Source: a virus. Taken from it: a stretch of 44,640 nucleotides of DNA. The notes below the pieces were generated by a model. That model saw only the letters and a program-made list of their open reading frames with translations. It searched no databases and had not been told where the DNA came from. The stretch covers positions 1 through 44,640 of IMG/VR virus record IMGVR_UViG_3300045988_093246; one strand, written 5' to 3'. Position 1 is the first letter of the stretch; every line of letters starts with the position of its first letter. This document shows positions 3,054 to 44,640 of this stretch, piece after piece. A program made the position numbers and the translations under genes.

Positions 3054-3362
3054 TTAGAATACGAAAGTGTAGCCTTTCCATTTGTTGTTTACTGCTTCAA
3101 TCTCTCTACTCATTTCATTCAGAACTTCTGCAAGTCTCTTCATTGCGTCGGTATCCAAACAAACCAGCTGCATGAATGTAAGTCTAAATTCAACATTGTA
3201 AACTTGATTAATATTTAAGTCTTCGTCCTTAAATCGGATACGTGCTATTCTATGACCAAATCCGTTTTTAAACAAGCACATCTCTAGCTTATCTCTCAAG
3301 TCTTTCTTGATTTCGCTCACTTCTTTAAATGTTATTCTTTTTAATAGTTCTTCGTTTGTCAT
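3054..3362 (-). CDS. Hypothetical protein
   Basis: ORF track 102 aa; preceded by the conserved promoter/leader element. Confidence 0.5.
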   Translation of the reverse strand: MTNEELLKRITFKEVSEIKKDLRDKLEMCLFKNGFGHRIARIRFKDEDLNINQVYNVEFRLTFMQLVCLDTDAMKRLAEVLNEMSREIEAVNNKWKGYTFVF

Positions 3363-3455
3363 AATGTTCTATCCGCCTTTTCTAAGTATTCTGTAAGTTC
3401 GGTTCGCTTACCTCTGTTACAATCACTATTATTGCGCATTTATGACATCTGTAAA
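3363..3455 (-). promoter_or_regulatory. Promoter plus conserved hairpin leader, copy A (family of 3)
   Basis: Minus-strand -35 TTTACA (plus tgtaaa 3450-3455), 17-nt spacer containing TGCGCA, and -10 ATAATA. An upstream A-rich UP-like tract follows. The leader carries a GTAAG...CTTAC inverted repeat and a ...TTAGAAAAGG RBS region, homologous to 6937-7023 and 13738-13859. Confidence 0.5.
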
Positions 3456-4170: not shown

Positions 4171-4653
4171 TTACTTTGCTGACCTTCTTTCTTTTTTAAA
4201 CTTCTTCTCATTTTCCTCATTAAATCTAATACGTGCACTTGAACTAGATTTAATTTTTCTTCTTGTTTTTACAGTTGTTTCTTCAACGTCTGAAACATCT
4301 AAATCTAAAAAATCATTTTGACTTGTATAAGTTCCTGTTTCAATATATTCTGCTATATCCGTAAGCATATCGGGCTTAACCAATAAATACACCTCGTTAG
4401 ACTGCAAGAACTGAATAGCAAACACGGGCATTTTATGACATACACCCGCATTATAATCTAAAACGTCAATATCTCTTTTATTTAATTTAATGCTTTCCTT
4501 ATCCGTGCTTTTCAACTGACATATAACCGCGTCTGATATACCATCCTCTTTTTCTACCCAACCGCTACCGCTGTTTTTTGTAGGCTTCAAGCCTAAACTT
4601 TCCATAACTTCCGCTTCGTTCTTTCTGTAGAATCTGAATGACCTTTTCATCAT
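4171..4653 (-). CDS. Hypothetical protein; weak nuclease-like motif
   Basis: 160 aa. EDGISD...CQLKST is faintly reminiscent of PD-(D/E)XK/VRR-NUC-type motifs. Not firm. Confidence 0.4.
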   Translation of the reverse strand: MMKRSFRFYRKNEAEVMESLGLKPTKNSGSGWVEKEDGISDAVICQLKSTDKESIKLNKRDIDVLDYNAGVCHKMPVFAIQFLQSNEVYLLVKPDMLTDIAEYIETGTYTSQNDFLDLDVSDVEETTVKTRRKIKSSSSARIRFNEENEKKFKKERRSAK

Positions 4654-5000: not shown

Positions 5001-5306
5001 TTATTTAATTTTCTCCTTTTTATTTTTATTCTGCATATCCTGCTCATACAGCTTATAAACGTGTTGCGCTATATCTAACAGGTATCTATAATCATAATCC
5101 GTTAGTCTCTGCGGTATGCCGCAACCTGTAGAACCGTCAGAATCATAGAATACATAATAGTAGGTTGATTGTTCGAGTTCCTTTATATCTGCGCTTTTCT
5201 GCATTTCTAACAACTGTATGCATAATTCATCGAAACTTTCATCGCTTATACAGTTTACATTCAATTCATAACATAGCAAGCTATGTATAATGATTCTGCG
5301 TTGCAA
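5001..5306 (-). CDS. Hypothetical protein
   Basis: ORF track 101 aa. Confidence 0.5.
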   Translation of the reverse strand: MQRRIIIHSLLCYELNVNCISDESFDELCIQLLEMQKSADIKELEQSTYYYVFYDSDGSTGCGIPQRLTDYDYRYLLDIAQHVYKLYEQDMQNKNKKEKIK

Positions 5307-5377: not shown

Positions 5378-5662
5378 CTACCTCTTCGCGCTCTTGCTTG
5401 CTCTAGCTTTTTCACGCTTCAAGCATCCACATGATAGCGTTGTTCCTGCCTGCAGCACACAACGTCTTACAACTACAAAATTACCACATTCACATTGGCA
5501 CAAATAAAAATGACGCTTTCTTAGCAGTGTTCTTTTGCTCTTCAATGAATAATCATCCTTATACCCTGCATAACTGATGACTTTTAATCTGCCAACCTTC
5601 TTACCGATTATATCGTTAGGGTTTATTTTCATCGGATAAATATATTTTCCCTGCGTATACAT
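5378..5662 (-). CDS. Small zinc-ribbon protein (CxCxCGN...SCGC motif)
   Basis: 94 aa. CQCECGNFVVVRRCVLQAGTTLSCGC is a Cys-cluster motif of the kind seen in small phage DNA-binding or HNH-associated proteins. Confidence 0.5.
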   Translation of the reverse strand: MYTQGKYIYPMKINPNDIIGKKVGRLKVISYAGYKDDYSLKSKRTLLRKRHFYLCQCECGNFVVVRRCVLQAGTTLSCGCLKREKARASKSAKR

Positions 5663-5800
5663 TTTGATTTCTCCTTTTCCTTTATATTTAATTTAGCCTA
5701 TTTAAGCGTTCTAAGAGATGTTTTACATTGATTGGTGTATTTGTACCTCTGATATGTCAACACCTCTTATAACGGCTATATTAGGCTTATAACAGCACTT

Positions 5801-5829
5801 AAGAATAAAGGGTTGACTTAGCAACCCTT
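5801..5829 (-). terminator. Hairpin / candidate terminator at end of AAA ATPase gene
   Basis: An 8-bp perfect stem aagggttg (5808-5815) / caaccctt (5822-5829) with loop acttag spans the gene's stop codon. On the minus transcript it is followed by a UUAUUCUU tract. Confidence 0.4.
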
Positions 5830-6936
5830 TTTAACTTCTCGTAAAGCTTTATGGTATCTTGAGTGTCCTACCATTGTAAAGGTATTGATTGTATCTTTGT
5901 CCAATCCTTTTACAACTGCAATCTTCATTGCTTCTTTTAGTTCCATCCCGCTCTTTTCTAACTTCGTTATCATCGTGATACATCTGTATGAGAATGTTGC
6001 TCTTATACCCTTGAAAGTTGCTTCATTTCTTAATTCATGGATAAATTCGACTAACTCTGTATTGTTGTTTGAGATTGATAATTCAATGTTTCTAGAATAA
6101 TCAAATTCGATAATAGCGAAACGGTCCAAAGTTGCTTGGTCTAGAACCATTCGACCTGTATATAGCTCGTCTGCCCCGCTACCTACAGTATTACCTGCTG
6201 AAACAAAATGAACCTTTTCACCAAAATTCAAGCGACCACAAGGAAATTCAAAATAACCATTTGCAATAGAAGCATTTAATAATACTAATACTTCTGGTAT
6301 GCTTGCGTCCATCTCGTCTAAGAAGAAGACCACATCTTTTCCTTCGCTTGCTTCTTTACAAGCCTTAAAGAATTCTGTTTCATGATACTTACCGCCTGCA
6401 TCAATGAATCCTGTTAGCTTGTATTCCTGCTGAACGGAATTACTAAAATAGAAATTCCATCCTAGTTCATTAGCAATCTGTTCAATTGTAAAGTTTTTAC
6501 CACTGCCAGCAGGTCCTGCTAAATAAACAGGTATTGAATTTTTTAAACAGCACTTGATAACATCATATTTTTCATGTTTAGCTTGCTTAGTTTCTTTCTT
6601 CTGTTCTTTAGGCTTTTCAGTTTTAGGCTTCTCAACCTTAACAGCTTTCTTTGCTGTTATTTTTGGTAAGCTGCCATTTTCACTGTTTGCAGTTCTTCTT
6701 TTTCCGCTTGTGCTGTATACCTCTCTGATTTCATAAGGCTTGTAATCTTTCTTGTTAAAATACACGTAACAACCTTCAACAATCACATATCCTTTATAAT
6801 ACTTACGTACATAGGTAAACTGCGCACCTGTCTTTTTAAATTCAATTGTGATTGCAACCTTACCACGCTTTGTAGAAGGTTCAATCTTTAAAACCTTGAA
6901 ATTAACTTTTCCGTTTTCTATTACTTTGTTTTCCAT
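5818..6936 (-). CDS. AAA+ ATPase, MoxR/CbbQ-like (AAA_5) with N-terminal extra domain and Lys-rich linker
   Basis: 372 aa. Walker A LAGPAGSGKN (atypical Asn after GK) and Walker B VVFFLDEMDAS. N-terminal ~75 aa domain followed by a K/E-rich linker. Confidence 0.65.
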   Translation of the reverse strand: MENKVIENGKVNFKVLKIEPSTKRGKVAITIEFKKTGAQFTYVRKYYKGYVIVEGCYVYFNKKDYKPYEIREVYSTSGKRRTANSENGSLPKITAKKAVKVEKPKTEKPKEQKKETKQAKHEKYDVIKCCLKNSIPVYLAGPAGSGKNFTIEQIANELGWNFYFSNSVQQEYKLTGFIDAGGKYHETEFFKACKEASEGKDVVFFLDEMDASIPEVLVLLNASIANGYFEFPCGRLNFGEKVHFVSAGNTVGSGADELYTGRMVLDQATLDRFAIIEFDYSRNIELSISNNNTELVEFIHELRNEATFKGIRATFSYRCITMITKLEKSGMELKEAMKIAVVKGLDKDTINTFTMVGHSRYHKALREVKKGC

Positions 6937-7934: not shown

Positions 7935-8010
7935 TCCTCTCTAGCACTCTTTGTGATGTTGTTTTCTAACTTGCAGACTTTGTGGTGTTGTTTTCTAACT
8001 TGCAGACTTA
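7935..8010. repeat. Two tandem ~33-bp direct repeats (tgttgttttctaacttgcagactt) upstream of gene 7097-7924
   Basis: ctttgtgatgttgttttctaacttgcagacttt, then gtggtgttgttttctaacttgcagacttat. Located just upstream of the SD/ATG at 7924. Confidence 0.8.
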
Positions 8011-8080
8011 TAGTACCACAAATAAATAAACTTGTAAAGTATTTTATTAAATTATTTTTAAAACTTTTTACACATAACAT

Positions 8081-8330
8081 AAATACTAACAGTTAACAGA
8101 TAATATAATTACTTAACAGTAAACAATACTAACATTAAATACTAAATACTAACATTAAATACTATAGGTATATAACATTTAAGTTAGTAGGTTAAATACT
8201 CTAAGTAAATAATAATACTCTAAGTAAATAATAAAGAATTACTAATAAAGAATTACAAAGAAAATATATATATATAAATATATATATACAAAAGAAAGTA
8301 AATAAGAAAGTAAGCGCACTTTTATACATT
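8081..8330. repeat. Iteron-rich AT-rich intergenic region with (TA)n tract; candidate origin
   Basis: Direct repeats atactaacattaaatact x2, atactctaagtaaataataa x2, taaagaattac x2, aaagtaaataagaaagtaag, plus atatatatatataaatatatatatac. It shares ggttaaatact with the 44.3 kb array. Confidence 0.6.
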
Positions 8331-11034: not shown

Positions 11035-11146
11035 TTTTTATTCTCCTTTTAATTTAATTTGTTTTTACTTCTTCTTTCTGATTTAATGCTACCACATTTC
11101 TAATACTTTGTAAAGCATTTTTTTTAATTTATTTTTAATTTTATTT

Positions 11147-13737: not shown

Positions 13738-13859
13738 TTTACATTCTCTTTTATTTTAATTATTTTTTTATCTCCTTTTCTAAGTATTTGTAAGTTTGTT
13801 TGTTTATCTACATATCTCCCTTACAAGTATGATTATATCACTTTTTAGGTGTTTGTCAA
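13738..13859 (-). promoter_or_regulatory. Promoter plus conserved hairpin leader, copy C
   Basis: Minus-strand consensus promoter TTGACA (plus 13854-13859), 16-nt spacer, extended TGaTATAAT (plus 13832-13837). Leader homologous to copies A and B (cttacaagtat..gtaag..., TTAGAAAAGGAG). Confidence 0.6.
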
Positions 13860-20463: not shown

Positions 20464-20492
20464 ATTGTACCGCTTTATTATGTTCCTGTCAA
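20464..20492 (-). promoter_or_regulatory. Near-consensus sigma-A promoter TTGACA-17-TACAAT (start of replication-module transcription)
   Basis: Minus-strand -35 = plus tgtcaa 20487-20492; -10 = plus attgta 20464-20469; 17-nt spacer. Lies immediately downstream of the late-operon terminator. Confidence 0.6.
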
Positions 20493-23916: not shown

Positions 23917-26900
23917 TTAAAAGCCTTCTGCCAATTCCTGTTTTGTCTTCTTCATCTGTCTTGATGCTTCTATCTCGTCTATTGGTTTTGGACTATTAAA
24001 GATAAATGTATCACCGTTTCCATTGTCTCCCTTTGGTTCTTTAATATCAACATATCCACTTGAATCGTTGCTTTTGTCAAAACCGTTATAACCTACATAA
24101 CCGATTGAACCATCTGAATTAATAAATAAATTGCCCGCCTGAATAAGCGTATTTAACGATTTAAGCATGTTATTAACCGATTTACCTATTCTAGTATCAA
24201 TACTGTCAAACCATACCGCTATATCTTTATATATTGATTTAACAGCGCTTGAGAAGTCACCAACTGAACCAACCATACTTACCGCTATATCGTTTACACT
24301 TAAATTGTCAACGCCTTTATTTAACATACCTTGTATATTTCTTAGCATGGCAGGCATTGCTGACTTAAAGCCGTTTGTAACACCAGGCGGTAAATATGCA
24401 CCAATCTCGTTAGCGAAAACTGTAGATGGGGAGTGAATACCTAAAGCACTCTTGGCACCGTCCACAACCCCTTTAAAGAAGCCTTTAACGTTAGAAACGA
24501 ATCTGTTCTTTGCTGATACAATACCTTTCCACACACCATCAACAATGTTTGAACCAATACTTAACATTTTTGACGGTATGCTTTTAGCTATATTAACAAC
24601 ATTGTTTAATAGACTTACACCTGCTTCTCGACCTTTAGCACCTAATCCGCTCACAAAATTTCTTGCACAGTTTATAGTGTTGTTAAACCATTTTGCTATA
24701 CTGCTTGGTAAATTTCTAATAAAATTAACTACATTGTTCACAAAATTAATACCAACCTGTTTTGCGCTGTTAACCATGTTTATATCCCATTGTCTTACTG
24801 TATTAAAAGCACTAGTCAAAAAGTTCATAATATTTGTCGGTAAATTTCTAAAGAATGTAACTACTGCATTGATAAAATTAGTTCCCATCTCTCTCGCTTT
24901 ATTTACCATGTTAACTGTCCAAGTCGCTACAGTTGTAATAACATAACCTAGAAAATAACCGATTTTATAGGGTAGATTTGTAAAGAACGTAACAACCGCA
25001 TTTACAAAATTAACAGCCATCTCACTACCTTTATTAACAACATTTACCGCGAAACTAGAAACCGTGTTTACTATTGAACTGCCCATGTTAGTAAAGAAAC
25101 CTGTTATACTACTCCATATACCGCTTAAAGAAGTACCAAACCAACTTAATATTGAATTTGCTACGCCACCCAATAATGAACCAACATTACTAAATGATGC
25201 TTTAATTCCTTCCCAAACTGAACCAAATATTTCTTTTACACCGTTCCACGCCTGCGTCCAATTACCCGTAAATACACCAATAAATATATCTACAATACCT
25301 AAAATAACATTTAACACTGTATTAATAACTGTACTCACTTGAGAAAAAGCACCTTCAAAAATCGGCGCTAACAAGTTACAAAAACCTAGCCATACAGACT
25401 TTATCACATTTACGATTGATTCTAGATTAATACCTAAAGCGCTGAACCTTTCGGAAATACCGCTAAAAAATGCACTAAAACTTGCGGTTATCTCTTTAAA
25501 TGTTGCCATCATGTTATTTCTAAATTGTTCATTAGTTTTCCATAGCGTCATAAACGCTGTAACTAGTACCCCGACCGCAGACGCAGCTGCAATCGCTGGG
25601 GCACTTAGTCCACCTAAGAACGAACCTAAAACAGATGCTTCTTTTCCTAATCCACTGAACCCCGCTTTAGATAATGCAAACCCTTCTTGTATATGTGTAA
25701 TACCTAACTGCAATAATCCAAAGTCTTTTTGTACTGTACCGATAACCTTTGGAACTGCTCCAAACGCTGACATTAATTTACCAATAGTTGATGTTAGCTT
25801 ACCAAAAACAATCAATGCTGGACCGATTGCACCCACAAACATACCCCATTTTACTATCTGTTCTTTTTGCTCTTTTGTCATTGATTGTAATTTTAACACA
25901 ACCCTCTGAACCCAATCAACAAAACTTTTAAAATAAGGTAAAAGCACCTCGCCAAACTGTATAGCAACACCCTCTAATGAACTCTTAAGTATTGTTAGCT
26001 GTCCGCCAAAATTATCAAGCATCGTTTTTGCGGTGTCTTCTGCTACGCCCTTGCAATTGTTCATGCTGTCGGCTAATTTGTCATACTCGCCTTGTGATAA
26101 ACTCAACAAACTTAACAAACCGCTCATACCTTCCTGTCCTGCTAAAACAGTGGCATAATATGTTTTTTGTTCATCCGTCATACCGCTAAAACTTCCGCGC
26201 ATTTCTGAAACAATTGTATTTAAACTTTTAAATGAGCCATCTGAATTAGTCAATTTTATACCTAATTCATCCATAGCGCTCTTAACATCATCTGTCGGCT
26301 TAACCATTCTTGCAAGCATAGTACGTAACGCCGTTCCTGCCTGCGAACCTTTAATGCCCGACATAGACATGGCAGAAATAGCCGTTGTTACATCTTCAAT
26401 GCTGAACCCCATTGTTTTTGCAATTGGTGAAATATATTTAAATGATTCCCCTAAATCTGTAATGTCAATAGTTCCTGCATTTGCTGACTGCGTTAACAGG
26501 TCAGCTACTCGTGATGCGTCTTTTGCTTTTAGTCCAAAGCCTGTTATAGCGTCCGCAACTATTGTTGATACCTGCGCTAAATCTTCACCGCTCGCACTCG
26601 CTGAATTTAAAACGCCAGCCATACCATCAATAATATCGTTTGCACTCCAACCAGCCTTCGCCATCTCTGTCATACCGTCCGCAACTTCACTCGCTGACCA
26701 TGCAGTAGTTGCGCCTAGCTCTTGGGCTTTCTTATTTAACTTCTGTAATTCGCCACCGCTTGCACCACTGACCGCCTGCACTCGTGACATAGCACTCTCG
26801 AAAGTAGAACTAGTTTTTATAACTAAACCGCCTAAGCCAATAATTGGCGCTGTAACTGTCTTAGTAAGAGTTGACCCGACCGCTTCTAGATTCTTGCCCG

Positions 26901-27042
26901 CGCTCTGTAAACGTCCGCCTATCGTGCTAGATATTCTTTTTGTAGTGTCTTCCGCTTCGTTTTGCGCTGTCTTTAAACTTTTCAAAAAACCGTTTATATC
27001 AAGGTCTAAATGTCCAACCGCTGAACCTACGTCTATCGCCAC
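23917..27042 (-). CDS. Tail tape measure protein
   Basis: 1041 aa, the largest gene. Internal repeats VNFVNAVVTFFTNLP / TNFINAVVTFFRNLP / INFVNNVVNFIRNLP / VSLLNNVVNIAKSIP, with hydrophobic Gly/Ala-rich segments. Sits between the chaperone ORFs and Dit. Confidence 0.85.
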   Translation of the reverse strand: MAIDVGSAVGHLDLDINGFLKSLKTAQNEAEDTTKRISSTIGGRLQSAGKNLEAVGSTLTKTVTAPIIGLGGLVIKTSSTFESAMSRVQAVSGASGGELQKLNKKAQELGATTAWSASEVADGMTEMAKAGWSANDIIDGMAGVLNSASASGEDLAQVSTIVADAITGFGLKAKDASRVADLLTQSANAGTIDITDLGESFKYISPIAKTMGFSIEDVTTAISAMSMSGIKGSQAGTALRTMLARMVKPTDDVKSAMDELGIKLTNSDGSFKSLNTIVSEMRGSFSGMTDEQKTYYATVLAGQEGMSGLLSLLSLSQGEYDKLADSMNNCKGVAEDTAKTMLDNFGGQLTILKSSLEGVAIQFGEVLLPYFKSFVDWVQRVVLKLQSMTKEQKEQIVKWGMFVGAIGPALIVFGKLTSTIGKLMSAFGAVPKVIGTVQKDFGLLQLGITHIQEGFALSKAGFSGLGKEASVLGSFLGGLSAPAIAAASAVGVLVTAFMTLWKTNEQFRNNMMATFKEITASFSAFFSGISERFSALGINLESIVNVIKSVWLGFCNLLAPIFEGAFSQVSTVINTVLNVILGIVDIFIGVFTGNWTQAWNGVKEIFGSVWEGIKASFSNVGSLLGGVANSILSWFGTSLSGIWSSITGFFTNMGSSIVNTVSSFAVNVVNKGSEMAVNFVNAVVTFFTNLPYKIGYFLGYVITTVATWTVNMVNKAREMGTNFINAVVTFFRNLPTNIMNFLTSAFNTVRQWDINMVNSAKQVGINFVNNVVNFIRNLPSSIAKWFNNTINCARNFVSGLGAKGREAGVSLLNNVVNIAKSIPSKMLSIGSNIVDGVWKGIVSAKNRFVSNVKGFFKGVVDGAKSALGIHSPSTVFANEIGAYLPPGVTNGFKSAMPAMLRNIQGMLNKGVDNLSVNDIAVSMVGSVGDFSSAVKSIYKDIAVWFDSIDTRIGKSVNNMLKSLNTLIQAGNLFINSDGSIGYVGYNGFDKSNDSSGYVDIKEPKGDNGNGDTFIFNSPKPIDEIEASRQMKKTKQELAEGF

Positions 27043-37321: not shown

Positions 37322-38215
37322 TTATTTTTTAGTTCCCTTCAATAGCCATTCCCACGTATTTCTACCTACGATACCATCTTGAGATAATCCTCTGTTTCTC
37401 TGAAAAACCTTTACTGCGTTTTCTGTTCCACCGCCAAAAATACCGTCTACTGAAATATGAAAACCTACACTATTTAATCTTTCTTGAATAAGTCTAGTGA
37501 TGTTGCCTTTTGCGCCTTTTTTAACAGTTACACAAGCGTCTAAAGTTTTTGGACCTCTTAAGCCATCAACGTTTAAACCTTTATGAAACTGATTATTTAA
37601 CTCTGTCTGTAGTCTTGCTACCCAACCATCATAATTTAATTTAGCTGTATTGTTATTTGGTGTTGGTATAGGTTTTGGCGCTTCTGTATGAGTTGCATTA
37701 TTTACTGTAGCATTTAGAATACCTTCTACAATTGCCTTTGCGCATTTATCAACGTTCCATCTCACTTTATCTATTGCATTGTCAACAAAACAGCATTCAA
37801 TTAATAAACTTGGGCTTTTTGTCTTTCTCAGCACATATAACTTAGTAGTTGTCTTAACTCCTCTGTTTCTGATACCTAGAGAATTGGAAATGTTATTAAC
37901 GATTCTCTGCGCGTATCCTTTCGCTCTAGAACTATCACTATATACATATACCTCTGTACCTGTTCCACCGCCAGCATTTAAATGGATTGAGACATCTAAA
38001 TCTACTTTATTCGCATTACACTTATTAACGATATTTCTTAGGTTCGCATTCTGCGTTGCGCCTACATCATCCGTACAATCATAAGCTGTATGTCCATTTG
38101 CTCTTAATAACTCAATCACTCTATTTTTTACCGCTCTATCTTCGTTCACTTCGTCTAGCAATCCGCTTGCTCCTCTGCATTTAAGAGAATGTCCACCGTG
38201 TACATTTAATTTCAT
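37322..38215 (-). CDS. Endolysin: N-acetylmuramoyl-L-alanine amidase (Amidase_3) with C-terminal PG_binding_1 repeats
   Basis: 297 aa. MKLNVHGGHS..., ...VDLDVSIHLNAGGGTGTEVYVY (Amidase_3 zinc-ligand motifs), then two peptidoglycan-binding repeats (GLNVDGLRGPKT..., VDGIFGGGTENAVKVFQRNRGLSQDGIVGRNTW). Confidence 0.8.
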   Translation of the reverse strand: MKLNVHGGHSLKCRGASGLLDEVNEDRAVKNRVIELLRANGHTAYDCTDDVGATQNANLRNIVNKCNANKVDLDVSIHLNAGGGTGTEVYVYSDSSRAKGYAQRIVNNISNSLGIRNRGVKTTTKLYVLRKTKSPSLLIECCFVDNAIDKVRWNVDKCAKAIVEGILNATVNNATHTEAPKPIPTPNNNTAKLNYDGWVARLQTELNNQFHKGLNVDGLRGPKTLDACVTVKKGAKGNITRLIQERLNSVGFHISVDGIFGGGTENAVKVFQRNRGLSQDGIVGRNTWEWLLKGTKK

Positions 38216-38217
38216 AC

Positions 38218-38514
38218 TTAATCACCTTCTTCAAAAATAATCTTAATGTCATAATCTGATGCGCACATATATTCAATCTTACACCCGCGCGCTTTGTTCC
38301 ATCCTTTACACAAATAAATAATATCTGCTTCTGATAATAGTTCAATTGACTTACCTAACTTAAATAAGGGCTTTTCATTACCGCCAAAATAATTATCAAT
38401 AATCTCTACATCATTATCGTATAATCTTTTAATGTTTTCAGCAGCCTTCGCTCTATTTAATTTAATTTCACGTTCTGACAACCCTCTAATAGGTTGGGAA
38501 ATAAAGACTTTCAT
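38218..38514 (-). CDS. DUF4406-family protein (nucleoside 2-deoxyribosyltransferase-like fold)
   Basis: 98 aa. MKVFISQPIRGLSEREIKLNRAKAAE... and ...ADIIYLCKGWNKARGCKIEYMCA match the DUF4406 pattern. Confidence 0.55.
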   Translation of the reverse strand: MKVFISQPIRGLSEREIKLNRAKAAENIKRLYDNDVEIIDNYFGGNEKPLFKLGKSIELLSEADIIYLCKGWNKARGCKIEYMCASDYDIKIIFEEGD

Positions 38515-38527
38515 CGTATTACTCCTT

Positions 38528-38761
38528 TTATTCCTCTTCTACTTCTGGAATACCGCCAATGGATGTTAGAATAGAAACGATACCTGCAACAATAGCGCTT
38601 GAAATTACCATTTTCCAATCTACAGCATCGATGACTGTTGCTGTACCGATTACAGCTACTGCTGTTTGCGCTACTGTTTTAATCGCTCTAATAAGTGATG
38701 CTTTTAACCATTTAACAGTATCAACATTTGGTTTGAATACACAATTCTTAAACATAATCAT
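38528..38761 (-). CDS. Holin, phiLC3/LL-H family
   Basis: 77 aa. IRAIKTVAQTAVAVIGTATVIDAVDWKMVISSAIVAGIVSILTSIGGIPE matches the phiLC3-family holin pattern (RAIKTF.Q...G...VDW...S...SILTS..GIP). Two TM segments. Confidence 0.75.
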   Translation of the reverse strand: MIMFKNCVFKPNVDTVKWLKASLIRAIKTVAQTAVAVIGTATVIDAVDWKMVISSAIVAGIVSILTSIGGIPEVEEE

Positions 38762-39929: not shown

Positions 39930-41297
39930 TTACCACTTATTACCGCTTCTAGAATTAAAATCTTTTTGTTTTAAGTCTGCAACCGTAACGGTATCCAGCG
40001 CATACCATATAGCACTAAATGAATGCGGGTCTATATTGAACTTATCATATACCGTATCGCCGTTCGGTTTTCTTAAATAAGTAAGGTCTCTTAGCTCTCT
40101 TATTGTATTCTTACACTTTGGACTACATATTATCTTTCTAAATCTCTTTATCTTACGCGTATTGCTTAGCCTACTTCCTGCAAACTTATTACGGCACGCG
40201 CGCATCTGATAACCTTTTTGTCTGTAATAGCTGATAGCCTTCGGGTCTTCATTATCTGCTACAATCTGCTTATATACGCCTTGAGTAGCGTAACCTTCTA
40301 AGCGGTGTTTTAACTCTACCATAGGCTCATAGCTTGCGAACTTATCATCTGTAACATGGTTCATGTATATTTCATCCCATATGTATAAATAACCGCGCTT
40401 TATATCTACGCTCATACTGATTACCGCATTAAATGATTCCTCAAAACCAAAGTCAAAACCAAAATACATATTTTTAGCACCTAGCGCATTTACTGCATCC
40501 TTAAATGTCTTCGCATTGCTTGCTACTCTAAATTGCGGTAAAACTCTAACACCATTTGCGCCAAACCTTCCCCAACGCGCTACACGATATAAAGGTTTAT
40601 CATAGTTTTTAATATCCTCTAATCGCTTTTTGTAGCTCTCTGGTAAATAAGGGTTATCATCCATTAAACTATGATGATAATATACGCCGTTATGTATTAG
40701 TGTTCTTTTCTTATATAGTTCTTCATCATCAAGTATAGTATGTTCATTTCCCTTTTCGTCAACAGATTTAAAGAAATGTCTATACACCCAATTCTCTTTT
40801 CCAACAGGGTTACATGACAATATAAAATGCATACTTATGTTAGGTGTTCTAATACGTCCTAACAACTCTTTATAACCCTCGTATTTAATTTCGCTACACT
40901 CTTCTAACCATACAATAGATACGCCGTTTAATGATTTCACTTTTTCGGGTTTATCCATTCCCTTGAAAATAATGCGCGAACCATTAGGGAATCTAAATTC
41001 CATCGGCGCCTTTAACGCTCTTACTCTTGTCTTAGTGTCGCGCTTTTCTTCCTCTACTAAAAGGTTCATACTGCTTAATATTTCTTTAAACAAGTCATAA
41101 CATGATTCGCTTAATGTATCATATACTTCACGTACTACCAATACTTTTCGCTTTTCCTGTAGGCATTTTAATATAATCTTAAGCGCTATATGATAACTTT
41201 TTCCGCTACCATAACCGCCTACTAATAAATAAGTTTCATAATACCAATCAAAAACAAAATCACTAAATCTTTCTGTTACTTCCTTAACTATATTCAT
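39930..41297 (-). CDS. Terminase large subunit (PBSX/Terminase_3 type)
   Basis: 455 aa. Walker A LVGGYGSGKSY, then a nuclease domain; follows TerS. Confidence 0.8.
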   Translation of the reverse strand: MNIVKEVTERFSDFVFDWYYETYLLVGGYGSGKSYHIALKIILKCLQEKRKVLVVREVYDTLSESCYDLFKEILSSMNLLVEEEKRDTKTRVRALKAPMEFRFPNGSRIIFKGMDKPEKVKSLNGVSIVWLEECSEIKYEGYKELLGRIRTPNISMHFILSCNPVGKENWVYRHFFKSVDEKGNEHTILDDEELYKKRTLIHNGVYYHHSLMDDNPYLPESYKKRLEDIKNYDKPLYRVARWGRFGANGVRVLPQFRVASNAKTFKDAVNALGAKNMYFGFDFGFEESFNAVISMSVDIKRGYLYIWDEIYMNHVTDDKFASYEPMVELKHRLEGYATQGVYKQIVADNEDPKAISYYRQKGYQMRACRNKFAGSRLSNTRKIKRFRKIICSPKCKNTIRELRDLTYLRKPNGDTVYDKFNIDPHSFSAIWYALDTVTVADLKQKDFNSRSGNKW

Positions 41298-41300
41298 AGA

Positions 41301-41909
41301 TTATTCATCGTCCCACTCTAACGCATCCCATTCTTCTTCCGTGCTGTCTTGCGCGCTTGCGCTTTGTTTGGCATTACTTTTGTCTGCGCTATTTGTTTTA
41401 TTTTCTTGCGCGTTTACTTCCCATTCTTCGCTATCATCATTTTGCGCATCCTTACGAATAATATTAACTGTAATATTACTGTTTTCTTTACTCTCTGTCT
41501 TGAATTGGTCTCTGTTGCGCTTCCAATTATCTGGTTTTCGATTATTTAACCAACACATGATAGCGGTCGGGTTTGGGGGCATTTCTTTAACTAATTCTTC
41601 AACCCTTACTTTTCTATTTCCGTTTTTATCTGGCGGGCTTATAATTGTTTTAACTTCTTTTACTTTGTAACCGCCTAGCGCTGTTTTTAATAGCGCATTT
41701 TCTACTTGATAATCAACGGTTTCTTTTCCTTCTTCTATTGCTTCATTTATTGCGGGGTATTTCTTGCGCCACTCACAAAAAACTTTATACGATATACCTA
41801 TTTTACGCGCAATATCTGCAAGAGTAAAATCACGCGCATAGCATTTTAATAATTCTATTTTATCGGGTCTTAACCAATAATCAACCTTGCTTTCTCTCTG
41901 TCTACCCAT
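41301..41909 (-). CDS. Terminase small subunit (HTH)
   Basis: 202 aa. N-terminal HTH FTLADIARKIGISYKVFCEWRKKYP and an acidic C-terminus; immediately upstream of TerL. Confidence 0.65.
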   Translation of the reverse strand: MGRQRESKVDYWLRPDKIELLKCYARDFTLADIARKIGISYKVFCEWRKKYPAINEAIEEGKETVDYQVENALLKTALGGYKVKEVKTIISPPDKNGNRKVRVEELVKEMPPNPTAIMCWLNNRKPDNWKRNRDQFKTESKENSNITVNIIRKDAQNDDSEEWEVNAQENKTNSADKSNAKQSASAQDSTEEEWDALEWDDE

Positions 41910-42737
41910 TATTATTTATTCACTTCCCTTTTATTTAATTTTCTTTATTATGCGCTACTTGCGCACTGCTGTTTTTAAAATACCTTTAAATAACACAAAT
42001 AGACAGTCTTCTGACTGCCTTTATTAAACTTAATATTTAAATTGTTTTATTTATTTTTTACTTTATTTTTATATATTCACCACAAATAATTATTTATATA
42101 TTCATTTTGTTGTTTTAATTTGTAAAAGCTATTCCCTGTTCTTATTCACCTTTGCGCACGTTGTCTCACTCGACATTGTGTATATTTCACTTATAATAAA
42201 TCAACAAAATTAGTTTAAAAAGTATATTGGGAAATTTAAGATAAACATTAACGAAATTATTACTATAAGTTGCTTGCTTGTATTCTATGGATTAAAAAGT
42301 AACTGAATGTGAATAAATTGTACTAAGTTATAAGGGGACTTAATTCTTATAACTATTTTATAAAAATGATTAAATTAGTTGGATAATCAACCATTAAAAC
42401 AAAGGTATGATAAATCAAAAAGTATTGTTTTATGAAATTAGAAACACACTTTGTATTGTTTTAAAAAATATTTCAAGGATTATTCTACATCTACATTCTA
42501 CAATGTGAAATATAAACACTTTCAGAAATGCATATTTACAACTTTAAATGAATATTTAATTTTAATTAACTAAGATATGTATAGCGCTTTTACATAACTC
42601 AATTATTTACTTACTAACTTAATTTTCTTATTACTCTTTGTCTTAAACACTTCTTAACTTAGTACTTTGTTACCCGCCCTTTTCTTTTGCTGTATTCTGT
42701 CTTTTTCATTGACATCGGTAACTAACTTTCTAAATAT

Positions 42738-42766
42738 ATTGTACTACAATCTTATAGACTTGTAAA
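42738..42766 (-). promoter_or_regulatory. Promoter TTTACA-17-TACAAT with A-tract UP element
   Basis: Minus-strand -35 = plus tgtaaa 42761-42766; -10 = plus attgta 42738-42743. An upstream (minus) A-rich tract and a GTGAAGCGATAACAC box (plus 42805-42822) follow. It is ~830 nt upstream of TerS. Confidence 0.5.
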
Positions 42767-42887
42767 GTACTTTTTAATATTTTTTTTAATTTAATAGTGT
42801 TTTACTACGGTGTTATCGCTTCACTCTATTTTTTTAACCTGCCCATGTATGCGCTCTTTTTAAACGATAATTGTGCTATACAAACTT

Positions 42888-43069
42888 TCATTTCAATTTA
42901 TCATTTTTAATGATTGCACACTCTCTTTCTCCACTAAATCTACTTTTGTTGTTTGATACCCATGTATAACCATTAGGCGCTGTAAGTGCTCCTTTTATTT
43001 TAACCCAACCTTTAGGAAGTTCACCTTTTATCACATGATAATTTTTACAATTATTTTTTTTCGTTTTGA
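42888..43069 (-). pseudogene. Open frame without start codon (…KGELPKGWVKIKGALTAPNGYTWVSNNKSRFSGERECAIIKNDKLK), possibly frameshifted
   Basis: ~60-codon stop-to-stop frame, protein-like, with no ATG. An A9 homopolymer lies at its 5' end. Confidence 0.3.
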
Positions 43070-43208
43070 TTACCTCTTTTCTAAGAAATTTGTTTATCTC
43101 TTTTCTTTATGTCTATAAACTACCATGACCATGTTTTTAATGTTTTGTAAACACTTTTTTTAATTTTTTTTAAGATTGGTGTTGTTGTGTTATCGCCTCA
43201 CATGAGTT

Positions 43209-43487
43209 TTATAATTTGATGTAATAAATACTACCATCGTGTGTTTTAACGATTGTCATATATAAATCATAATCTTTTTTATAAACTACCTTGATTTCTA
43301 CACAAGCACTATAATTGATTCTTAGTGGTTCTCCTTTATAGCTGTCGCTGTCTGATGTTACATCATAACTATCATTTACATAAAAGATATCGCTATTGTT
43401 ATCTAGCATATTCTTAGCGTTAAATTCTGTGTACATAGTCATATCTAATTCAAAACTTTCAATGTCTGTTATCTTTACTGTTTTCAT
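43209..43487 (-). CDS. Hypothetical protein
   Basis: 92 aa. AGAGAGGTAAA SD; downstream of promoter 43551-43579. Confidence 0.5.
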   Translation of the reverse strand: MKTVKITDIESFELDMTMYTEFNAKNMLDNNSDIFYVNDSYDVTSDSDSYKGEPLRINYSACVEIKVVYKKDYDLYMTIVKTHDGSIYYIKL

Positions 43488-43550
43488 ATTCGTTTACCTC
43501 TCTAATCTTAGAATTTTTATTTTTTTATTTCCTCTTTAACTTACAAACTA

Positions 43551-43579
43551 ATATTAACATATAATTTAATATTTGTAAA
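43551..43579 (-). promoter_or_regulatory. Promoter TTTACA-17-TAATAT with UP element and upstream GTGAAGCGACAACAC box
   Basis: Minus-strand -35 = plus tgtaaa 43574-43579; -10 = plus atatta 43551-43556. Box at plus 43623-43640. Confidence 0.5.
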
Positions 43580-43708
43580 GAGTTTTTTTTAATTTTATTT
43601 AAAATAAAGATTTGTGTTTATAGTGTTGTCGCTTCACTTTCTAACTATTTGTTATAAGCATCAAACAGTTTTCTATTTTTGTTGTCTACATAGTAAACAG
43701 CACCTTCG

Positions 43709-43942
43709 CTACCACCCAACCAACCAACATAAATCGTCTTGGTTTTTTAAAACATCTTCTAAAGGTTTTAGGTATGTTCTCGTACCGTTAGATGTATAAT
43801 CTGCACCTACCATAACTAAATCCATACCGTTGACAGTAAATACACCACCATTAAAACCTAACTGTTTTAATTCCCAATTAAATGCAATTTTTTCAACTTT
43901 CTTAAATGTAACTTTTCTCGTTTTTCTGTTCTCCTTTAACAC
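43709..43942 (-). CDS. Hypothetical protein (GTG start)
   Basis: 77 aa. Apparent GTG start; 31 nt downstream of the -10 of promoter 43973-44000. Confidence 0.4.
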   Translation of the reverse strand: MLKENRKTRKVTFKKVEKIAFNWELKQLGFNGGVFTVNGMDLVMVGADYTSNGTRTYLKPLEDVLKNQDDLCWLVGW

Positions 43943-43972
43943 TTTTATTTGTTTATCTCTTTTACAACTACT

Positions 43973-44000
43973 ATTATACTGATTTTTAACCGTTTGTAAA
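43973..44000 (-). promoter_or_regulatory. Promoter TTTACA-16-TATAAT
   Basis: Minus-strand -35 = plus tgtaaa 43995-44000; -10 = plus attata 43973-43978. Confidence 0.55.
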
Positions 44001-44039: not shown

Positions 44040-44440
44040 GCATATTGTTTATATACTGCAATAATTATTATATTTGTTAAATACCGTAAATAATATAACT
44101 TATATTGCTGTTAAATACTACTAATGTATATAGCTTTATGTTAAACACTATTAATGTATATAGCTTTATAGGTTAAACATAAGATGTTATCTTAGTAAGA
44201 TGTTATCTTAACAAGATTTTATCTTAGTAAGATGTTATCTTATTTACGTTAAATACTATTAACGTATATAGCTTTACGTTAAATACTATTAATGTATATA
44301 ACTTTATAGGTTAAATACTATTAACGTATATAACTATTAATGTATATAACTTTATGTTAAATACTTTATAGGTTAAATACTTTATAGGTTAAACATAAGA
44401 TTTTATCTTAGTAAGATGTTATCTTAGTAAGATGTTATCT
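44040..44440. repeat. Iteron/palindrome array: ~9 copies of the gttaaatactattaaYgtatataRctttat unit interleaved with two clusters (4+3) of palindrome TAAGATnnnATCTTA
   Basis: Read directly. The palindrome ataagatgttatcttag occurs at 44179-44245 (4 copies, some as ataagattttatctta) and 44395-44445 (3 copies). Direct ~29-bp repeats lie at 44110-44175 and 44268-44390. Confidence 0.85.
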
Positions 44441-44441
44441 T

Positions 44442-44458
44442 ATTTATGTGAAGCGAAC
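44442..44458. other. GC-rich hairpin GAAGCG-aac-CGCTTC adjacent to the iteron array
   Basis: A perfect 6-bp stem in tgaagcgaaccgcttcg, followed by a relatively GC-rich 60-bp block. Confidence 0.6.
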
Positions 44459-44498
44459 CGCTTCGTTGCCCCACCTCGCTTACACTCCTTACTCCCCA

Positions 44499-44528
44499 AT
44501 AGTACCACTGCGCATTCCATTTTGTCAA
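44499..44528 (-). promoter_or_regulatory. Right-end promoter TTGACA-18-TACTAT with long upstream A-tract (UP element) and TGCGCA in spacer
   Basis: Minus-strand -35 = plus tgtcaa 44523-44528; -10 = plus atagta 44499-44504; spacer contains TGCGCA (44509-44514). Plus-strand T8 and T10 runs at 44533-44552 act as an A-tract upstream of the -35 on the minus strand. Fires leftward from next to the terminal repeat. Confidence 0.5.
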
Positions 44529-44541
44529 CTACTTTTTTTTG

Positions 44542-44640
44542 ATTTTTTTTTTGGGCTTTCATTTTTTTAATTTACCAATTTAAATTATGCTGATTATAAG
44601 GGCATTTTTTTAATTGCATGATTAAATTTTCTAATTGTGA
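44542..44640. repeat. Terminal direct repeat / circular overlap copy 2 (identical to 1-99)
   Basis: Exact identity to window positions 1-99. Confidence 0.9.

Follow-up and report, generated by a model that had tools for sequence, protein, structure and literature searches.

Introduction

In T4-type phages, repeated intergenic cassettes named PeSL, each composed of a strong sigma-70-like promoter with an AT-rich upstream region and an adjacent stem-loop, flank ORFans, and the breakpoints of indels and replacements between close relatives lie in these repeated blocks (PMC2839356, PMC4122927). Phage-specific promoters, the sigma-70/sigma-A promoters with UP elements of lytic phages, and small H-type pseudoknots such as the preQ1-I aptamer are the other described systems closest to the locus considered here. 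Compact, sequence-invariant pseudoknots usually bind something specific, i.e., a metabolite, a nuclease, the ribosome or RNA polymerase. Here, we analyze a stretch of 44,640 nt, the IMG/VR virus record IMGVR_UViG_3300045988_093246 (hereafter, the window), and in particular its positions 42738-44000, where promoters with A-tracts alternate with three copies of a conserved motif, the box. With moderate confidence, we suggest that the promoters are ordinary sigma-A promoters, that the box is a separate cis-acting, post-transcriptional pseudoknot RNA, and that the blocks joining the two are recombination linkers.

Results

A cassette array with three boxes and four promoters

Positions 42738-44000 hold a small, variable gene array that, in the orientation of the genes, follows an iteron-like block and precedes the terminase genes. 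It comprises three small ORFan genes and four promoter sites, which lie before the three ORFans and before the leader of the small-terminase gene. The initial annotation of the window had described this region as non-coding and as part of a right arm. However, three small open reading frames (ORFs) lie in it (43942..43709, 43487..43209 and 43034..42888). Moreover, bases 1-99 of the window are identical to bases 44542-44640; the window is therefore a complete contig, circular or terminally overlapping, its "left arm" and "right arm" are artefacts of the cut site without biological meaning, and the region is directly upstream of the small-terminase gene.

With at most one mismatch, the 15-mer GTGAAGCGATAACAC, the core of the box, occurs exactly three times in the window, at 43623-43637, 43187-43201 and 42810-42824, all on the minus strand, and neither an nhmmer profile nor a covariance model found a fourth copy in the window. 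The count of three boxes in the initial annotation thus stands, while its coordinates were a few nucleotides off. In the numbering used here, G1 of GUGARGCGAUAACAC is position 1, p-1 lies just before and p16 just after the 15-mer, and p25 follows the downstream AACAC. We propose that the box is transcribed and forms an H-type pseudoknot of ~27 nt. Stem S1 (4 bp) would pair N(-1)G1U2G3 with C13A14C15N16, leaving the 9-nt loop ARGCGAUAA, and stem S2 would pair R5-G6-C7-G8 with C22-A23-C24-Y25, with a C7.A23 mismatch; L1 would be A4, L2 AUAA, and L3 an A-rich linker of variable length. In transcription order, the features of the array are as follows, with each box given as p-1, 15-mer, p16, linker, AACAC and p25.

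43973..44000, minus strand: promoter P1, TTTACA (44000-43995), 16 nt, TATAAT (43978-43973), 11/12 consensus positions; predicted to drive ORF1
43942..43709, minus strand: ORF1 as it stands, 77 aa (43645..43942 when extended); no family match; homologue in locus L076
43613..43638, minus strand: box 1, A, GUGAAGCGACAACAC, U, AUA, AACAC, A; outer S1 pair A:U; A.A mismatch at p5:p25; 38.4 bits and E 2e-5 with the covariance model, E 1.5e-6 with nhmmer; 7 nt after the ORF1 stop
43551..43579, minus strand: promoter P2, TTTACA, 17 nt, TAATAT, A-tract 43580-43612 upstream; predicted to drive ORF2
43209..43487, minus strand: ORF2, 92 aa; no family match
43178..43202, minus strand: box 2, U, GUGAGGCGAUAACAC, A, AC, AACAC, C; outer S1 pair U:A; G:C at p5:p25; 35.2 bits with the covariance model; 7 nt after the ORF2 stop
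43117..43151, minus strand: promoter P3, TTTACA, TGgTAGTTT at a 23-nt spacer; predicted to drive ORF3
42888..43064, minus strand: ORF3 (ORF 43034..42888, 48 aa from GTG 43034); no family match
42796..42825, minus strand: box 3, A, GUGAAGCGAUAACAC, C, GUAGUAA, AACAC, U; A.C mismatch in the outer S1 position; A:U at p5:p25; long L3; 30.6 bits and E 1.4e-3 with the covariance model
42738..42766, minus strand: promoter P4, TTTACA, 17 nt, TACAAT; opens the leader to the small-terminase gene

All three boxes begin 7-9 nt past the stop codon of the preceding ORF. This placement fits the concern, raised in the initial annotation, that the boxes might be part of terminators of the upstream genes; however, none has a GC-rich hairpin followed by a U-tract, folding z-scores range from -0.9 to 0.05, and the box was rejected as an intrinsic terminator. 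A partial inverted copy of the motif, GTGAAGCGA (44448-44456, plus strand), was also set aside; such a 9-mer is expected ~0.3 times by chance, and nhmmer gave it E = 1.1.

The box is widespread in uncultured phages

The box was compared with copies at other contig loci, which are denoted by L-numbers (L001 etc.). The exact 15-mer occurs at at least 119 viral-contig loci, of which ~20 are one unrelated coding sequence, and at ~96 loci AACAC follows 2-8 nt downstream. In nearly all other loci, the extended motif reads GTGAAGCGATAACAC, 4 nt (sometimes 5), AACAC-T. A variant with G at position 5 (GTGAGG...) is present at 39 further loci, and a metagenome scan added at least 120 copies from human gut and rumen. 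Overall, uncultured phage and metagenome contigs carry more than 300 copies. By contrast, 185,579 reference genomes gave only 11 matches, including Absicoccus intestinalis and several metagenome-assembled Bacillota genomes; the Absicoccus intestinalis copy (L120), the one closely inspected, lies among small phage-like genes. Among GenBank phages, the motif is absent save for one chance match in a coliphage coding region, and the sequence did not occur in the papers searched. A ATGAAGCGACAACAT variant (L010/L086) lies in an apparent antisense coding sequence and was excluded from the counts.

The phages that carry the box differ in their replication modules, which are of the DnaE type (the window, L038/L050), of the PolA type, or belong to temperate-looking phages. 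Likewise, the genes that follow boxes are mutually unrelated and include ORFans, a DnaC-like loader, a clamp loader, a sigma factor and tRNAs; clustering of the proteins encoded around boxes returned replication proteins and no shared regulator. Copies are single and dispersed between genes, and the conserved footprint spans -7 to +30.

Covariation supports a pseudoknot fold

Several lines of evidence make the proposed fold reasonably well supported at the level of sequence comparison. First, p-1 and p16 are Watson-Crick partners in 103 of 142 copies, compared to 56 expected, with all four pair types represented; with this pair, the invariant inverted repeat GUG/CAC becomes a stem of 4 bp. Second, p5 (A/G) covaries with p25 (U/C) (Fisher p = 8e-15). 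Third, in an alignment of 114 sequences, 94.7% of the cells are paired vs 89.1 +/- 0.6 after shuffling (reached in 0/500 shuffles), and the covariation score is 0.211 vs 0.106 (0/500), while shifting the partner column by 1-3 positions gives at most 0.123. Because p5 had been fixed by the search patterns, the test was repeated on 91 new metagenome copies in which p5 was free. In these, p-1:p16 is Watson-Crick in 76 and wobble in 6 copies (53.5 expected), and p5:p25 is Watson-Crick in 70 and wobble in 10 (43 expected) with A:U, G:C, U:A and C:G pairs (permutation p < 2e-4 in both cases); the neighboring pairs p-2:p17 and p4:p26 show no excess. Fourth, where p16 and p25 differ, p-1 matches p16 over the other candidate in 71 vs 19 copies and p5 matches p25 in 77 vs 49, which rules out pairing of GUG with the second CAC.

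Finally, changes on both sides of a stem are seen in individual loci. The inner stem is compensated in L125 and L129, which read CUGG[AAGCGAYAA]CCAG, and L092 has a paired insertion, GUGG[AGGCGAUAA]CCAC; all three variants are intergenic and are followed by the usual A-rich tail and AACAC. Close to the window, the U:A outer pair of box 2 is G:C in the homologous box of L131/L132, a compensatory change. The unpaired bases, in turn, are nearly invariant. Altogether, covariation and stem variants argue for a transcribed RNA element rather than a double-stranded protein-binding site, and near-invariance together with compensatory pairing is what purifying selection on a structure would leave.

L125, L127 and L129, which have been binned as Dojkabacteria or Saccharibacteria, carry canonical as well as stem-variant boxes. 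These contigs are probably mis-binned phage contigs; otherwise, the host range would be much wider.

Does the fold belong to a known RNA class? With the RF00522 covariance model, the box gave no match at the gathering threshold, none at E <= 1 in the window region and none at E <= 10 for four boxes of L128; more generally, none of the Rfam families, including PreQ1, matched a box even when hits up to E <= 10 were admitted, and Rfam (gathering and E-value thresholds) and tRNA searches on the window and box-rich loci returned only neighboring tRNAs. Even so, the resemblance to a small riboswitch deserves consideration. A preQ1-I-like element that tunes translation of the next cistron to a global metabolite would have, as the box does, a 4-bp P1, an A-rich tail whose 3' end pairs with the loop, a total length of ~27-30 nt, near-invariant unpaired nucleotides of the kind typical of binding pockets, a marginally stable P1 as in ligand-dependent folds, and a position 2-12 nt upstream of the ribosome-binding site (RBS). 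The Thermoanaerobacter preQ1-I aptamer has the loop GCAGUAA and the tail UUAACAAAAC, which resemble GCGAUAA and UUAAAACAC of the box. However, besides the missing Rfam match, L2 (AUAA) lacks the ligand-pairing C of preQ1-I, the fold leaves RBS and terminator both unsequestered, the downstream genes are mutually unrelated, and boxes also occur before tRNAs and in 3' untranslated regions (UTRs). We therefore regard a riboswitch of this kind as improbable.

Alternatively, a folded box could be a decoy that ties up a host defence nuclease by imitating an RNA of the host, for instance a CRISPR repeat, the D-arm of a tRNA or the pseudoknot of a type III antitoxin. The box is phage-restricted and common to unrelated phage lineages of the same habitats, its sequence is near-invariant as if its partner were a conserved host protein, its A-rich flanks and the size of the pseudoknot are antitoxin-like, several dispensable copies occur per genome, and its loop resembles a tRNA D-loop, as described next. 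On the other hand, neither tandem arrays nor host repeats that match the box appeared in the reference-genome scan, toxin or Cas genes were not seen linked to it, and the tight placement of the box relative to stop codons, RBSs and tRNA 5' ends would have no obvious reason. We consider a decoy quite unlikely.

The loop AAGCGAUAA (e.g., window 43634-43626) is identical at 8/9 positions to the D-loop AAGCGGUAA of a tRNA-Gln (L009 8812-8885), and phage tRNA-Gln with this D-loop frequently follows a box. The likeness may reflect tRNA mimicry, a tRNA-derived origin, or chance.

Programmed frameshifting or readthrough was rejected because slippery heptamers are not found consistently at the distance required and because the copies before tRNAs do not fit. 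Sites for sigma-D, extracytoplasmic-function sigma factors and sigma-G, cre sites and DnaA boxes differ from the box in spacings or key bases.

The box lies at cistron boundaries and before tRNA arrays

The orientation of the box is always that of the genes. A same-strand ORF stops 6-11 nt upstream in 58/89 copies, and an RBS and start codon follow directly in 70/111, with the box 2-12 nt upstream of the RBS. Other copies head arrays of tRNAs and noncoding RNAs; in these, only the first tRNA has a box, and its mature 5' end is 5-6 nt past AACAC. The box is found in intercistronic positions, in a 5' leader (L033) and in a 3'-UTR (L120), where ~40 nt and then an intrinsic terminator follow. It is also optional, i.e., present in some and absent in other phages between the same pair of orthologous genes. 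Before homologues of ORF2 (L106, L096, L090, L070), there is a sigma-A promoter or, immediately upstream, a box.

Much of this pattern could be that of a DNA-level phage-specific promoter recognized by a modified host RNA polymerase or by another polymerase or sigma factor; boxes and A-tract promoters would then be promoters of two temporal classes, arranged in tandem. A conserved intergenic motif of ~26 nt that is always co-oriented with the next gene, heads tRNA arrays at the first tRNA only, replaces a sigma-A promoter before homologues of the 92-aa gene, comes and goes between the same orthologous genes, has a footprint of promoter size and, in L120, is arranged with a terminator like a small-RNA unit is compatible with this idea. 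Nevertheless, we judge it unlikely. Watson-Crick covariation and compensated stems are unexpected in a double-stranded promoter. In GTGAGG variants, the RBS can begin only 2-3 nt past AACAC, too close for transcription to start downstream of the motif. Within the window's lineage, the distance between block 1 and block 2 of the motif varies from 3 to 11 nt. A terminator never precedes the box (0/100 copies). Lastly, the box is shared by several unrelated phage lineages, and no RNA polymerase or sigma factor is detectable in the window with Pfam and PHROGs.

The initial annotation had proposed that the box co-regulates the A-tract/TTTACA promoters from ~45 nt above the -35. That distance is roughly right: from the end of the 15-mer to the -35, it is 43, 35 and 43 nt for boxes 1, 2 and 3. 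In the window and its close relatives an A-tract promoter follows every box, and the two AACAC direct repeats, ~9 nt apart in the box, could suit a DNA-binding protein. While the promoter class itself holds up, with sigma-A-type promoters before ORFs, several findings argue against the box as an upstream activator or operator site. The spacing is neither constant nor helically phased, also when measured from the end of AACAC (34, 27 and 30 nt). Eight other promoters of the same class in this genome have no box. Of 100 non-redundant copies, four have a strong sigma-A promoter within 110 nt downstream and one has it upstream, i.e., ~5% of the family, on either side. And covariation indicates single-stranded pairing. 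Because promoters are so rarely near boxes elsewhere, an upstream-activator model does not generalize, the layout in the window is a local juxtaposition, and we find such a role very hard to credit.

Some box-associated features stand apart from these questions. In L001 (reverse strand 5567-6070, locus 2113-1613), the gene directly behind a box and near a small-terminase gene encodes a 167-aa protein of the sigma-70 family, with a homologue in L028; the protein is likely a late sigma factor of that phage group. The gene was found in these two loci only, and the window has no counterpart. Related phages also have another repeated module in their intergenic regions, in which the palindrome ATGTTTCaaaaaGAAACA stands before a sigma-A promoter; this module alternates with boxes in the same operons (L115 2803-2900, 4629-4725 and 5360-5500; L106 1777-1920; L096 ~4300-4448); the palindrome is likely an operator. 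Box-headed arrays (L004 2625-2725; L005, L023, L033, L080, L092) contain odd tRNA-like genes of ~100 nt (GGGATAGTAGTCAAGTGG...) and other conserved noncoding RNAs (GTGAGTGATATGCAAGAGGC..., CCTGGCAGACAAAAG...), for which Rfam matches only tRNA. In the window, 5001-5306 (minus strand) encodes a 101-aa stand-alone protein that consists only of the N-terminal Ia domain of NAD-dependent DNA ligase, and homologues of it are encoded near boxes at six other loci.

Junction blocks as probable recombination linkers

L131 and L132, the close relatives of the window, are ~90% identical to it at the nucleotide level and 96-97% identical in the small terminase. Both have retained the iterons, P1, and the blocks in which a box, an A-tract, a TTTACA promoter and a leader follow one another, but they carry different genes between these blocks. 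When the window is compared with L131, homology sets in exactly at the 5' end of each box and extends across the promoter and the leader. In L131, two other ORFs, unrelated to those of the window, replace the cassettes; in L132, a deletion between two junctions fuses two cassettes. Alignment of nine junctions from the three genomes shows a repeated promoter block with an AT-rich upstream region that flanks ORFans. Exchange of ORFans between conserved blocks is thus seen directly in the comparison of relatives. We suggest that the junction block (box, A-tract, promoter, leader) functions as a recombination linker, between copies of which relatives would swap or delete ORFans. More distant relatives (L136-L145) lack the box, have other upstream genes and are uninformative.

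Because the breakpoints of relatives coincide with junction blocks and the box is optional between orthologous genes, the box might have no function of its own and owe its conservation solely to a recombining or selfish junction repeat of which it is part. However, ~24 nt are near-invariant and show compensatory pairing over hundreds of copies in diverse phages and habitats, and we give a functionless box scarcely any credence.

The cassettes themselves show signs of decay in two of three cases, and sequencing error is possible for these. ORF1 has a frameshift near 43715, with a plausible C-terminus beyond it that ends at TAG 43647-43645. In cassette 3, the ancestral ATG of ORF3, 10 codons upstream of the GTG, is ACG (43064-43062) and remains ATG in the same leader of L131; moreover, a tandem duplication of catggt (43117-43145) has moved the -10 of P3, so that the spacer is 23 nt long, and P3 is probably impaired. 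Such decay fits dispensable ORFans. Upstream of box 3, ~42835-42866 is a relic of a gene 3' end (..LKRAHTWAG*) that is intact in L131; the relic appears to have been left by a recombination event.

From P4 to the small-terminase gene, the leader of ~740-830 nt is ORF-free (41990-42735); folding detected no excess RNA structure in it and Rfam no match. Immediately before the small-terminase gene, the leader closes with a terminator-like hairpin (42001-42020, minus strand), an arrangement that recalls antitermination-controlled late operons.

A family of sigma-A promoters

The plus-strand pattern TTGTAAANNNTTTTTTT, for which the initial annotation had listed six places, was recovered with at most two mismatches at all of them (3449, 11108, 42760, 43145, 43573, 43994) and additionally at 8032, 33488 and 44522. 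Also the minus-strand class of A-tract, TTTACA, spacer and TAnnnT is real: with TT[TG]ACA-N16-18-TAnnnT and at least 15 A in the 30 nt upstream as the search pattern, the minus strand has 10 matches (vs 0.53 +/- 0.73, at most 3, in 300 dinucleotide shuffles) and the plus strand has none, i.e., the class is confined to the coding strand. Including looser copies, -35 hexamers start at 44528, 44000, 43579, 43151, 42766, 33494, 20492, 13859, 11114, 8038 and 3455, of which 20492, 43151 and 3455 fit a slightly looser pattern. In addition to P1-P4, the sites are the following.

44499..44528, minus strand: TTGACA, 18 nt, TGgTACTAT; long A-tract upstream; reads into a GC-rich hairpin and the iterons
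33466..33494, minus strand: TTTACA, 17 nt, TGgTAAAAT; within the structural gene block
20464..20492, minus strand: TTGACA, 17 nt, TACAAT; after a terminator-like hairpin, at the start of the replication module
13832..13859, minus strand: TTGACA, 16 nt, TATAAT; A/T tract upstream
11086..11114, minus strand: TTTACA, 17 nt, TGgTAGCAT; long A-tract; previously noted at 11109
8010..8038, minus strand: TTTACA, 17 nt, TGgTACTAT; A-tract upstream
3426..3455, minus strand: TTTACA, A-tract, weaker -10 TAATAG at 18 nt; upstream of ORF 3362..3054; previously noted at 3450

The sites lie in intergenic spacers upstream of ORFs, and some front small genes. Ten of the 11 have the layout of sigma-A promoters (-35 with at least 4/6 matches to TTGACA, a 16-18 nt spacer and a TAnnnT -10), the exception being P3 (43151); five have an extended -10 (TGg), and the 30 nt upstream of the -35 contain 15-21 A. 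The A/T tract of P1 extends upstream to ~44030, P1 is conserved in L131 and L132, and the promoters are generally kept in relatives of ~90% nucleotide identity. By these features, the repeated elements are canonical sigma-A promoters of the host type, with A-tracts that resemble UP elements, as is usual for strong promoters in lytic phages; that they form an early, UP-dependent class, as had been proposed, is plausible. The family is routine, and its main use is as a transcription map of an uncultured phage.

Two repeat regions lie next to promoters of this family. At 44040-44442, six 15-bp palindromes TAAGATnnnATCTTA form two triplets with 16-bp spacing that flank ~5 copies of a 30-nt repeat; upstream of this iteron-like block are the strong A-tract promoter at 44528 and the GC-rich hairpin GAAGCGguuCGCUUC (44449-44466). 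The block is a candidate replication origin or operator array. Just upstream of promoter 8038, the noncoding stretch 7949-8292 is rich in tandem repeats of 29, 26, 20, 19 and 14 nt and could be another origin or regulatory region.

Gene content of the phage

Every long ORF in the window is on the minus strand. At the DNA level, there is no close GenBank phage, and region 42738-44000 has no nucleotide match there; the top protein matches of the ORFs are to phages of Clostridium and other Bacillota. The phage is a siphovirus, and its host probably belongs to the gut Bacillota. Genes were assigned with Pfam and PHROGs on ~50 ORFs, many small ORFs remaining without assignment, and PDB sequence searches with two unassigned ORFs gave nothing useful. 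In addition to a portal gene, followed by those for the minor head protein and the major capsid protein, and a replication block with primase, DnaE-type polymerase, methylase, RecA, Cas4-like exonuclease and resolvases, the assigned genes include the following.

41909..41301, minus strand: small terminase
41297..39930, minus strand: large terminase
38761..38528, minus strand: holin, r1t-type
38215..37322, minus strand: endolysin
35725..33905, minus strand: minor head protein with a C-terminal Alt-like ADP-ribosyltransferase domain
27042..23917, minus strand: tape measure protein, 1041 aa
16600..13889, minus strand: DnaE-type polymerase, 903 aa

No integrase, RNA polymerase or sigma factor, and no regulator cognate to the box, was assigned among the ~50 ORFs, a non-exhaustive survey given the many small unassigned ORFs. 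The r1t-type holin, the endolysin and a nucleoside 2-deoxyribosyltransferase (37322-38761, minus strand) are encoded between large terminase and portal, an unusual place. The ADP-ribosyltransferase domain of the minor head protein (33905-35725, minus strand) resembles T4 Alt. T4 Alt modifies the alpha subunit of RNA polymerase; the minor head protein, if injected with the DNA, could act on transcription from UP-element promoters. The long, ORF-poor stretch 100-1240 contains odd short repeats, e.g., TAGCTGT x4.4 (1060-1090) and TATAAGCCA-like repeats (489-551).

Discussion

Here, we identify in the cassette array of an uncultured phage a conserved box that is predicted to be an H-type pseudoknot RNA. 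Our best guess for its function, which builds on placement and conservation, is a post-transcriptional, cis-acting role. We suggest that the box, carried on read-through transcripts 7-9 nt past each stop codon, binds a conserved host or phage factor or a ligand, and that the bound box marks cistron boundaries for RNA processing, for RNA stability or for translation of the next cistron. The partner might be a protein of the phage, a nuclease of the host, the ribosome, RNA polymerase or a small ligand. The fixed orientation, the near-invariance, the spread over unrelated phages and the optional placement all fit a cis-acting RNA with a conserved partner.

Several points weigh against the proposal that the box is a cis-acting pseudoknot RNA. 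The window copies are weaker members of the family: boxes 1 and 3 have one mismatch, the L3 lengths are odd, and the covariance model scores them at 30-38 bits vs 45-60 for typical copies. S1 alone is weak (-0.7 to -3.3 kcal/mol) and standard folding gives no excess structure at the window boxes, so that tertiary contacts, a ligand or a protein would be required to form the fold. Because the search for copies itself fixed most of the 15-mer, direct covariation rests on two pairs and three stem variants, and kinship among copies can inflate covariation statistics. The transcripts of P2-P4 would start downstream of a box, which could therefore act only on read-through RNA or as a 3' element. The RNA itself, the transcription starts and the RNA ends are all read from DNA sequence. 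Finally, the box standing in for a sigma-A promoter before homologous genes, its place at the head of tRNA arrays and the L120 arrangement of box, ~40 nt and terminator fit a promoter equally well.

Taking a further step, the box may represent a new class of very small (~27-nt) pseudoknot RNAs of uncultured Bacillota phages, either a preQ1-I-like sensor or a protein-binding or decoy RNA, that would control the expression or survival of transcripts at cistron boundaries and before tRNA operons; we put this forward tentatively, as a possibility that we think has less than an even chance of being right. The box is apparently undescribed, with no match in cultured-phage records, in Rfam or in the literature searched. 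It matters for its strong purifying selection, for the support by base pairing and for its presence on hundreds of gut and rumen phage contigs from several lineages. Its partner could reveal how these phages organize the expression of polycistronic RNA and tRNAs or how they evade RNA-targeting defences.

How does the locus compare with described systems? Its promoters share hexamers, spacer, the TGn motif (in five) and A-tracts at ~-40 to -60 with the sigma-70/sigma-A promoters with UP elements that serve as strong early promoters of lytic phages; compared to the consensus, the steady T at the third -35 position is a minor bias and nothing unusual. As for the box, phage-specific promoters (T7-type, 23 bp; T4 middle and late) are likewise conserved, oriented motifs of 20-30 nt before many genes or tRNAs. 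Unlike these, the box covaries as base pairs, has no cognate polymerase or sigma factor found with it, and is identical across unrelated lineages rather than co-varying with a phage-encoded polymerase. With the preQ1-I aptamer (RF00522) and compact H-type pseudoknots of the luteovirus type, the box shares size, topology, an A-rich tail, marginal stability and proximity to an RBS, and the H-type fold in which an A-rich 3' tail pairs to the loop, a preQ1-I trait, is supported in the box by covariation. However, the box differs from preQ1-I in lacking the ligand-pairing C in L2, an expression platform and a link to queuosine genes, and in leaving the RBS outside the fold; it differs from luteovirus-type pseudoknots in lacking a slippery sequence at frameshifting distance. 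Tandem arrays upstream of a toxin gene, as for type III antitoxins (ToxI-like), did not appear in the genome scan.

The closest parallel to the array as a whole is found in PeSL cassettes of T4-type phages. In both cases, composite intergenic blocks of a promoter and a folded element surround ORFans in a variable region, and breakpoints between relatives lie in the blocks. Unlike in PeSL, the folded element is a sequence-invariant mini-pseudoknot without U-tract instead of a GC-rich terminator stem-loop, and next to the boxes we found no terminator-like hairpin of the PeSL type, only the weak 4-bp hairpin of the predicted pseudoknot. Also unlike PeSL, the box occurs alone and promoter-free in many unrelated phages, and the phage is a siphovirus with a Bacillota-type host. 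The box-promoter junctions would thus extend the idea behind PeSL, i.e., that repeats act as linkers for the shuffling of ORFans, beyond T4-type phages of Gram-negative hosts.

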